A stretch of DNA of 64,000 nt from an uncultured Mycoplasmatota bacterium. GTDB lineage: Bacteria; Bacillota_I; Bacilli_A; RF39; UBA660. This document shows, in pieces, positions 43,403-44,827 of this stretch. Each line of letters opens with the position of its first letter. The first letter of the stretch is position 1. The stretch is taken from contig USDJ01000002.1 in assembly GCA_900553395.1 (NCBI GenBank), forward strand, positions 66,525 to 130,524. The letters are read 5' to 3'. A model generated the notes under the pieces. The model saw only the letters and a program-made list of their open reading frames with translations. It was not told the origin of the DNA and searched no databases. The translations under genes and the position numbers were made by a program.

Positions 43403-44827
43403 TTATGATTCAAATGTTATATTTGAATCACTATAACCTGTTGCCCATCCAAATACTCTCTTACCAAAGCTCGTAAAATCTGATGTAGATGTTTTACCTT
43501 TTACTACTACACTTGTTAATTTATTATTACCAAATGCCATAGTTCCTATCGATGTCACACTACTTGGTATTTCTACCTTAGTTAACTGATTATAGTTAAA
43601 TGCAGTATTACCTATAGTTGTTAAATTAGTAGAAATTTTAATGCTTGTCAATGCATTACCACTAAATGCTGAGCCTCCTATTGTTGTTACACTATCTGGA
43701 ATCTCAATGCTTGTTAATTGGTTAGTTTGAAAAGCACCTGTCCCTATAGTTGTTACTCCTTCTGGTATTTTGACACTTACTAGTTTACTAGTAGAGTTAC
43801 TAGTAGAGAATGCATAATCACTTATAATTTTTACATTATTAGGTATTACAACATTTTCCTTTTTCTTACCGCCATAACTAACAAGTTCAGTGTTATCTAT
43901 GCTGCCATCACTATTTCTCTTATATATAAATGCTTCCTCATCTGACAATTGATTATCACTAAATGCTCCTCCGTCAATAGATGTTACACTCGTTGGAATT
44001 TTTAAAGTCTCTAATTTATTACTTCTAAATGCTAGTGGTCCTATACTAGTAACACTTGATGGAATCTCAATACTTGTTAATTGATTATTATTAAATGCGC
44101 TAAATTCAATTGACGTAACACCATTTGGTATCTCGACACTAGTCAATTGATTTTGAGCAAAATTTGTTTTACCTATAACTTTAAGATTGCTTGGTATTTC
44201 TATACTTGTTAATTTATTATTAAAAAATGCTAGTTCACCAATAAATGAAACACTATCAGGGATTTTTACACTTTCTAATCCCTTAGACATAAATGCACCT
44301 TTTCCTATACTAACTACAGTTTTACCATTAATAGTATTTGGAATTACTACATCTAATACTTCGTTTTCAGCACCTTTACCACAATTATATTTTGTTACTT
44401 CTATTCCACTTTCTACAGCTTTTGTTTCAAAGCAAGATTCTGCTGTTGGAACAAGTTTTAAGTTTTCCTTACTACCTAACGTAAAATTATATCCAATAAT
44501 CTTTCCCTTTTCAAATGTAATTGTTCCACTAGTTGGCTTAGTATTTTCTACTTGAACCTCTAATAATGTATCTCCATCGCATTTTAAATTGCCATCACTT
44601 TGTATTTCACAAGTACTTGGACTAAACTTTTCAGTTAAATTTTTACGAGCTACTGCTTGCTCTACTGCATCTAAATAAAGTTCTGAACTTCTTTCATCTG
44701 CACTTTCTTTAGAATTACCAATCATATTTATTACAATTGGTGTAGCAATTAAAGCGATTATTGCTAGTATTACTATTACTGCTAAAAGCTCTATTAATGT
44801 AAATCCTTTATTTTTTACATTTTTCAT
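43403..44827 (-). CDS. Prepilin-type N-terminal cleavage/methylation domain protein fused to a BspA-type leucine-rich repeat domain (pilin-LRR fusion, paralog of 32453..34162)
   Basis: MKNVKNKGFTLIELLAVIVILAIIALIATP class III signal, the same head domain (SELYLDAVEQAVARKNL...C...C) and about 11 LRR_5 repeats. The conserved tail is VVKGKTSTSDFTSFGKRVFGWATGYSDSNITFES. Confidence 0.75.
   Translation of the reverse strand: MKNVKNKGFTLIELLAVIVILAIIALIATPIVINMIGNSKESADERSSELYLDAVEQAVARKNLTEKFSPSTCEIQSDGNLKCDGDTLLEVQVENTKPTSGTITFEKGKIIGYNFTLGSKENLKLVPTAESCFETKAVESGIEVTKYNCGKGAENEVLDVVIPNTINGKTVVSIGKGAFMSKGLESVKIPDSVSFIGELAFFNNKLTSIEIPSNLKVIGKTNFAQNQLTSVEIPNGVTSIEFSAFNNNQLTSIEIPSSVTSIGPLAFRSNKLETLKIPTSVTSIDGGAFSDNQLSDEEAFIYKRNSDGSIDNTELVSYGGKKKENVVIPNNVKIISDYAFSTSNSTSKLVSVKIPEGVTTIGTGAFQTNQLTSIEIPDSVTTIGGSAFSGNALTSIKISTNLTTIGNTAFNYNQLTKVEIPSSVTSIGTMAFGNNKLTSVVVKGKTSTSDFTSFGKRVFGWATGYSDSNITFES
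43490..44350 (-). repeat. Internal tandem coding repeats encoding the BspA-type LRR array
   Basis: Recurrent LTS(I/V)EIP.SVTSIG..AF units. Confidence 0.55.

Follow-up and report, generated by a model that had tools for sequence, protein, structure and literature searches.

A type IV pilin module joined to a BspA-type leucine-rich-repeat solenoid: a modular pilin and its head family in uncultured gut Bacilli and Mycoplasmatota

The gene considered here encodes a protein of 474 amino acids in which a type IV pilin module is followed by a leucine-rich-repeat (LRR) module of the BspA type, known in Pfam as LRR_5. It lies in a stretch of 64,000 nucleotides (the window) from an uncultured Mycoplasmatota bacterium (contig USDJ01000002.1, positions 66,525 to 130,524). 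The open reading frame (ORF) is intact and occupies exactly the position, 43403-44827, given for it by an earlier analysis of the letters alone (the sequence-only reading), which had named no strand; it is encoded by the minus strand. The protein was modelled with AlphaFold2 (AF2) on 29 homologs, with mean predicted local distance difference test (pLDDT) 91.2 and predicted template modelling score (pTM) 0.77. The parts of the gene and its flanking signals are the following.

43403-44827, minus strand: intact ORF of the 474-aa modular pilin (ORF list, Pfam, NCBIfam, AF2)
44804-44827, minus strand: class III leader MKNVKNKG, residues 1-8, ending in Gly-1 (sequence; N_methyl and TIGR02532 matches)
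44633-44803, minus strand: alpha1, with hydrophobic alpha1N in residues 9-29 and a single helix on to residue 65 (AF2, alignment, phmmer)
44444-44632, minus strand: predicted small beta-sheet pilin head, residues 66-128, with a conserved Cys73/Cys83 pair
44357-44443, minus strand: N-terminal solenoid cap, residues 129-157, with Cys132/Cys149 and the motif CFxT...Y.C (AF2 strands 133-147)
43940-44356, minus strand: LRR_5 repeats 1-6, residues 158-296 (repeat parsing; Pfam LRR_5 stretch 173-293)
43853-43939, minus strand: beta-hairpin insert or second cap, 'AFIYKRNSDGSIDNTELVSYGGKKKEN', residues 297-325, between the LRR_5 cassettes (AF2 strands 300-304 and 310-318)
43511-43852, minus strand: LRR_5 repeats 7-11, residues 326-439 (repeat parsing)
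43406-43510, minus strand: C-terminal solenoid cap, residues 440-474, with the conserved 'VFGWATGYSDSNITFES' tail (AF2 strands 432-473, pLDDT 92-97)
43403-43405, minus strand: stop codon
44887-44859, minus strand: promoter-like TTGACT-17-TAAAAT (consensus match only)
44839-44834, minus strand: Shine-Dalgarno (SD) sequence GAGAGG, 6 nt 5' of the ATG (consensus match only)
43300-43328, minus strand: terminator-like hairpin 3' of the stop codon

The N-terminus carries the signature of a type IV prepilin. Both Pfam N_methyl PF07963 (34.2 bits, cutoff 21.2, residues 5-28) and NCBIfam TIGR02532 (IV_pilin_GFxxxE; 33.6 bits, cutoff 16.3) match above their cutoffs, and cleavage by a prepilin peptidase is predicted before Phe9. 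Close homologs have a leader of five residues, MKNKG. The leader is followed by FTLIELLAVIVILAIIALIAT, about 21 hydrophobic residues that begin with Phe+1 (FTLIELL) and have Glu at position +5. Residues F9, T10, E13, L14 and L15 (F+1, T+2, E+5, L+6/+7) are invariant in 29/29 aligned homologs, and E13 is also invariant in the alignment of 132 members of the head family described below. Since this motif is invariant in the homologs, and N_methyl is found in 132/132 head-family representatives, the class III signature is not a matter of chance. Moreover, phmmer matches the N-terminus with alpha1 of MshA, Streptococcus sanguinis PilE1 and geopilin. Both AF2 models of the protein contain a helix of 55 residues (11-65), followed by the strands of the predicted pilin head within residues 72-124. 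The textbook prepilin leader with Glu+5 of the sequence-only reading is thus borne out, and the pilin-like head that it placed after the leader is supported by the AF2 model and the homologs.

The remainder of the protein is an LRR_5 module. Pfam LRR_5 PF13306 matches with 203 bits (cutoff 27.7) in two stretches covering residues ~158-445, so that both profiles, N_methyl and LRR_5, exceed their cutoffs in the same protein. Repeat parsing gives 11 units of ~22 aa, one irregular first unit and ten regular ones, in agreement with the earlier estimate of about 11. The consensus of the 22-aa unit is x[IV]xIPxx[VL]xxIxxxAFxxNxLTS, and positions I3, I10, F15, N18 and L20 are invariant across the 11 units, as is F133 of the N-terminal cap in the homolog alignment. 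The beta-hairpin insert, of about 27 aa, follows repeat 6 and is kept in many homologs. Tandem Repeats Finder (TRF) detects no tandem array at the DNA level in this gene; the LRR repeats are therefore old, and recent DNA-level repeat expansion is ruled out.

In the AF2 model the solenoid is continuous from the LRR cap to the C-terminus. The tail 'GWATGYSDSNITFES', already singled out as conserved, is modelled as part of the C-terminal solenoid cap (pLDDT 92-97) and is not a sorting signal. A short linker, LKLVPTAES, connects head and cap, with pLDDT ~85 across residues 120-130. The fused solenoid has a mass of ~35 kDa. Foldseek matches the LRR part with the structures 4gt6, 4fs7, 4cp6 and 4h09 (E ~1e-9 to 4e-8, probability 1.0), and phmmer matches it with 4gt6 (2e-30).

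The sequence-only reading had not recognised the fusion as a described family. Its structural part, a pilin N-terminus and head with an LRR_5 module, stands and agrees with the modular-pilin concept, and its idea of a tip or minor-pilin adhesin shown on a pilus is reasonable, but the claim of novelty does not hold. Raynaud et al. 2021 (PNAS, PMC8179133) describe over 1,200 "modular pilins", which fall into 264 architectures; IPR012902-IPR026906, that is, N_methyl followed by the BspA-type LRR_5 entry, is the seventh commonest of these with 18 proteins (Fig. 8 and Dataset S1 there), and IPR012902-IPR026906-IPR026906 adds six further proteins (Dataset S1). The architecture described here, an N_methyl motif and then one or two BspA-type LRR_5 regions, is the same. 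It is also abundant in current databases: a class III leader is present in ~76/120 best database matches to the 474-aa protein, most of which have both Pfam domains, and some homologs carry the NCBI or JGI name "leucine-rich repeat domain-containing protein". The fusion thus belongs to a common and already annotated pilin subclass. Raynaud et al. (PMC8179133) group IPR026906 with domains of "no clear function" and only counted the architecture, giving no anatomy, lineage distribution, paralogy or context for it. A full-text literature search found no LRR pilin characterised experimentally and nothing on the subject beyond that catalogue. The 474-aa protein is a further member of a class of modular pilins that is already catalogued and common but untouched by experiment; compared with the catalogue, it falls in a far larger, lineage-specific head family.

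This family was collected with a profile of the pilin module alone, which yields at least 738 clusters (50% identity, E<=1e-30), mostly from metagenome-assembled genomes (MAGs) of uncultured low-GC gut Bacilli and Mycoplasmatota. The class III motif is present in all of the top 146 clusters, and 126/146 exceed 210 aa in length. In a Pfam census covering 132 members, each has N_methyl and 32 (24%) have LRR_5; the other cargoes include a few LRR_8, DUF6273, DUF285, lectin-like and lipase (GDSL) domains, while most have no Pfam family. It follows from this census that the lineage employs one head as the carrier of many cargoes, LRR_5 being the commonest recognisable one.

In the genome scan, relatives of the 474-aa protein come almost solely from uncultured gut MAGs of human, rabbit and ruminant samples. 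The identical protein is found on human-gut metagenome contigs (ENA ERZ28619677, scaffold_36, 155 kb) and has been assembled from several samples. Pilin-fusion genes are scattered as orphans and also form tandem arrays, often with several loci per MAG, and show strain-level gain, loss and decay. One such array, in a Hadza gut Bacilli MAG (L006 2986-13774), comprises five tandem pilin-LRR genes of ~675 aa each. The extreme case of cargo size comes from a Clostridium sp. MAG, in which an ORF of 2671 aa (L074 9917-18016) carries a class III leader.

The LRR_5 module is also found behind other N-terminal signals in non-pilin homologs. In eight homologs without a pilin leader (P0029, P0031, P0039, P0053, P0074, P0078, P0095, P0096) a transmembrane (TM) segment is followed by ...G(V/F)(S/T)YA(Y/F/W)F..., a motif that recalls SipW-dependent (TasA/BsaA-type) signals. 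The profile search for such a signal on the non-pilin LRR_5 homologs gave a single sub-threshold match to TIGR04090 (28 bits, cutoff 60), which is a hint.

The window itself contains three further members or remnants of pilin genes.

32453-34162, minus strand: 569-aa paralog that shares the architecture, having a class III leader, a longer divergent head, LRR_5 and the same tail (N_methyl 25.3 bits, LRR_5 260 bits)
39306-40370, minus strand: third modular pilin, 354 aa counted from MKKDG, which is followed by FTLVELL, with a cargo without Pfam family (ORF list, Pfam, NCBIfam)
about 54379-54963, minus strand: decayed pilin gene in which a stop codon takes the place of Gly-1 (KNR, stop, FTLIELLAV...) and frameshifts follow

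The 569-aa paralog sits between Spo0A and the PFOR gene. Identity between it and the 474-aa protein is 34% in the head, 52% in the LRR and 81% in the tail. The cargo of the 354-aa pilin, ~290 aa long, ends in '...YGVRPVIEVKRNKIS'; the listed ORF reaches 17 codons farther upstream, and the same gene in the related strain L001 is called at 354 aa. In the decayed gene, alpha1 is 87% identical to that of the 474-aa protein and the remnant C-terminus reads '...GIRPVIEVSKDKL', which shows gene death within the pilin family.

Strain L001 is 97% identical and syntenic, and has three tandem LRR pilins, of 379, 533 and 471 aa (L001 7043-11416), against one in the window; the array corresponds to window positions ~44828-44948. 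This is strain-level copy-number variation. The LRR_5 score of the 533-aa protein is 290 bits, although a precomputed Pfam table shows no match for it. Alpha1 and head of the 471-aa and 533-aa paralogs are 97-100% identical, and their LRR parts ~72%. The two LRR pilins of the window show the opposite pattern, having diverged in the head while keeping the tail, which indicates module shuffling.

Compared with its 97% ortholog, the window gene has 30 nucleotide differences, every one of them within residues 129-439 (dN/dS ~0.6), with none in the 360 nt of alpha1 and head and none in the C-terminal cap. Half of the strain-level amino-acid changes (7/14) are concentrated in repeat 8 (residues 352-373), at the hypervariable positions of the repeat, and the substitutions avoid the framework positions of the LRR. 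A cargo surface that varies on a conserved carrier is the pattern expected of an adhesin repertoire displayed by way of a common assembly module.

The 474-aa pilin gene looks monocistronic, because it has its own SD sequence and promoter-like site and a terminator-like hairpin downstream. The window has a GC content of 26.7% and otherwise contains housekeeping genes (pgk, tpi, PFOR, Spo0A, dinB, PFL, ligA and a PBP1-type gene). Downstream of the pilin-LRR gene there is an ORF of 169 aa (42658-43167). It keeps its synteny in every strain seen and matches nothing in Pfam, NCBIfam or PHROGs; a sigma-70 consensus without mismatch, TTGACA-16-TATAAT and a TG upstream of it, precedes the ORF (43194-43221, minus strand). 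The ORF was considered as a conserved partner and rejected, being unrelated to the ORF downstream of the homolog in L002. Beyond the decayed pilin gene, two adjacent ORFs (55013-56008 and 56070-57020, minus strand, 331 and 316 aa) have near-identical C-terminal and divergent N-terminal halves; no family match was obtained for them (PHROGs for the first, Pfam for the corresponding L089 genes). A protein with SpaA/TED domains, of the sortase type and isopeptide-forming, is encoded near pilin-fusion genes at L088 17459-18895 and L002 15215-16549, the former lying on the source contig ~7.5 kb outside the window, on the side of position 1. The organism therefore also has conventional Gram-positive surface display.

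No T2SSE, T2SSF or A24 gene was detected by regular-expression and phmmer screens of the window and of 10 kb on each side of it, and in 79/82 related loci (~1.3 Mb) no assembly gene is found near a pilin-fusion gene. The three loci with assembly genes near homologs are L011, with a PilC-PilD pair, and L010 and L028, with Tad-like operons. Units of these two kinds were located as follows.

L010 10001-16078 and L028 79-7164: Tad-like operons with two TadE, ParA/TadZ-like, T2SSE, T2SSF with an Ig-like domain and T2SSF genes, then murC
L011 774-3863, L084 8167-10762 and L090 8088-10765: T2SSF/PilC of unusual length (606-770 aa, extended at the N-terminus), in every case paired with an A24 peptidase

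In L011, a Mycoplasmatota MAG, the long T2SSF/PilC and the A24 prepilin peptidase lie 2.7 kb upstream of a homolog of full architecture (33% identity over 314 aa). Low-GC relatives from gut and biogas have kept the long-PilC/PilD unit, beside serS or comEA/comEC, and no ATPase gene adjoins these pairs. In L010, a gene that has the pilin module in full (43% identity over residues 4-134) is situated 72 bp upstream of the operon, whose order is TadE-TadE-ParA/TadZ-T2SSE-T2SSF-T2SSF, corresponding to TadE-TadE-TadZ-TadA-TadB-TadC. In L028, head-family genes are inserted between TadA and TadB, one copy being frameshifted. A regular-expression search of the L010 and L028 Tad-like loci saw no Flp-type ORF. 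The 354-aa pilin of the window was considered as an ortholog of the Tad-embedded pilin in L028; this was dropped, as BLASTP similarity is restricted to alpha1. A24 peptidases are present in the lineage, in L011 (on the contig of the homolog) and in L084-L099; the frequently assembled PilD homologs P0147 and P0134 come from other samples and other habitats than the species of the window. Related Erysipelotrichales, moreover, are documented to carry Tad and comG loci. Given the PilC-PilD pair of L011, the Tad-like operons of L010 and L028 and these Erysipelotrichales loci, the lineage possesses type IV filament machinery.

Among known systems, the minor pilins PilB (von Willebrand factor A, vWA, module) and PilC (lectin module) of S. 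sanguinis resemble the 474-aa protein, PilB being the precedent in the literature for modular pilins. Like the 474-aa protein, they come from a monoderm host and have a class III leader with Glu5 and a pilin module of small size, which a short linker joins to a bulky adhesion module; a tip or low-abundance display is proposed in both cases. The cargo fold is different, an LRR solenoid instead of vWA or lectin; there is no detectable sequence relationship outside alpha1, and pilB and pilC belong to the pil operon that also holds the machinery, whereas the window gene is an orphan among housekeeping genes. The LRR_5 repeats and the predicted fold are those of Tannerella BspA, pneumococcal PcpA (4cp6), group B Streptococcus HupY/LrrG and the gut-bacterial proteins 4gt6, 4fs7 and 4h09 solved by structural genomics, and by analogy the module presumably serves adhesion or ligand binding. 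These BspA-type surface proteins differ from the 474-aa protein in that they lack a pilin module and are anchored by Sec, lipoprotein, choline-binding or sortase routes. The score with the HupY/LrrG equivalog NF047961 of NCBIfam is 137.5 bits against a cutoff of 1250, so the protein is not an ortholog of HupY/LrrG, although the repeat type is shared.

The pilins of the Com pilus (ComGC-GG) and the pseudopilins (GspG-K) of the type II secretion system (T2SS) have the alpha1 signature in common with the 474-aa protein, but size and cargo are wholly different, and no comG or gsp operon surrounds the window gene. The models of ComGC, ComGD, ComGE, ComGF and GspG/H/J match alpha1 only and remain below their curated cutoffs (32.6 bits against 75 for ComGC, 27.2 against 88.85 for GspG). 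As for the Tad (type IVc) loci, such as that of Bulleidia extructa (PMC12786226), their TadE-like, TadZ-like, TadA, TadB and TadC genes are also found in L010 and L028. Still, Tad pilins are normally short Flp-type proteins without a globular head that are processed by TadV, while the 474-aa protein has a head and a type IVa-like GFTLIELL; the link of the Tad system to the window's own gene is indirect.

The 474-aa protein is probably a modular minor or tip pilin, which would be processed by an A24 peptidase and present its LRR adhesion surface from a type IV filament in which it is of low abundance. In the mechanism that we propose, alpha1N would insert the protein into the membrane, and an A24 prepilin peptidase would cut after Gly8 and N-methylate Phe9. 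A filament machine, either PilC/PilD-associated or Tad-like, would then extract the protein and add it as a low-abundance or tip subunit, as such a bulky cargo could hardly be packed at every position of the shaft. The LRR surface would bind a protein or glycan ligand on the host, mucus or another microbe, and paralogs that keep the carrier and vary the LRR surface would form a changeable adhesin repertoire.

Several observations weigh against this. The genes are orphans among housekeeping genes, both in the window and in 79/82 related loci, and many large paralogs, of up to 2671 aa, occur per genome. The number of strain differences is small, and gene conversion could give the same pattern of a constant carrier and a variable cargo. 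The first two points fit the main alternative, a display without any filament, in which the class III signal serves for export and anchoring, the cleaved alpha1N remains as a membrane stalk and the LRR is exposed on the surface; in a variant, the proteins might form short pseudopilus-like stubs, as proposed for archaeal sugar-binding proteins with class III signals. The great diversity of cargoes on the same head, including a GDSL lipase, and the lack of an extension ATPase beside the PilC-PilD pairs point in the same direction, and we consider display of this kind possible, without being likely. Against it stand the invariance of Glu+5, which in type IV pilus biology is required for methylation and assembly, not for cleavage, and the conservation of the head beyond the TM segment, at 97-100% between tandem paralogs with diverged cargo. 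Some family members are, moreover, embedded in Tad-like operons, and a membrane-anchored 474-aa protein may not span the cell wall, which the organism has, as the PBP1-type gene in the window indicates.

Release of the LRR part, either by a T2SS-like or Tad-like machine to which the pilin-like N-terminus directs the protein or by cleavage of the LRR after export, appears improbable. The short linker between head and cap could be a protease site, and the quite different N-terminal signals of other LRR_5 homologs show that the module works in several contexts; yet the linker has no conserved processing motif, head and cap form a continuous and fairly confident unit in the AF2 model, and we know of no precedent for such release in monoderms. 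It is very improbable that an ordinary Sec signal or signal anchor merely resembles a prepilin leader and that the protein is a conventional membrane-anchored BspA-like protein. A hydrophobic N-terminus could in principle engage Sec or the signal recognition particle (SRP), but true pilins too are inserted via SRP/Sec, and the matches to N_methyl and TIGR02532 above curated cutoffs, FTLIELL behind Gly-1 invariant across 132/132 family representatives, the similarity of alpha1 to that of the major pilins MshA, PilE1 and geopilin, and the A24 peptidases of the lineage, one of them on the contig of a homolog, all speak for a genuine class III signal. Finally, decay or loss of function of this family member could be suspected from the pseudogenes of the family (54379-54963 in the window and the frameshifted copy in L028) and from the fairly high dN/dS of the LRR region; it is most unlikely for an intact ORF with its own SD sequence, promoter-like site and terminator-like hairpin, whose identical product is assembled from several samples, whose AF2 model is highly confident and whose substitutions spare the framework positions. 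The modular minor or tip pilin is therefore the reading that we prefer.

Modular pilins explain many functions of simple type IV filaments, but of their modules only vWA and lectin, both from S. sanguinis, have been studied in depth. The LRR_5 pilins, though one of the commonest modular architectures, are uncharacterised. The window supplies a clean and confidently modelled LRR_5 pilin together with paralogs, a pseudogene and strain variants, in which the cargo diverges and the carrier is kept. It places the LRR_5 pilin family in gut Bacilli that are abundant but uncultured, and in which proteins of this kind may be the principal adhesins. In practical terms, it offers a defined candidate that can be expressed heterologously and screened for ligands, and no new principle.

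The more interesting remainder is the lineage-wide "one head, many cargoes" family, occasionally found inside Tad-like operons, which would merit attention if its assembly route is truly hybrid. Speculatively, and with rather low probability, a single pilin head in uncultured, low-GC, reduced-genome gut Bacilli and Mycoplasmatota might be the universal carrier of a large set of fast-evolving cargoes, its type IVa-like GFTLIELL pilins being assembled by an unusual hybrid of a PilD-type peptidase and a Tad-like (TadZ/TadA/TadB/TadC) polymerising machine without a Flp pilin of its own. If true, this would be a pilus-based display of variable adhesins, possibly for attachment to host or partner cells.

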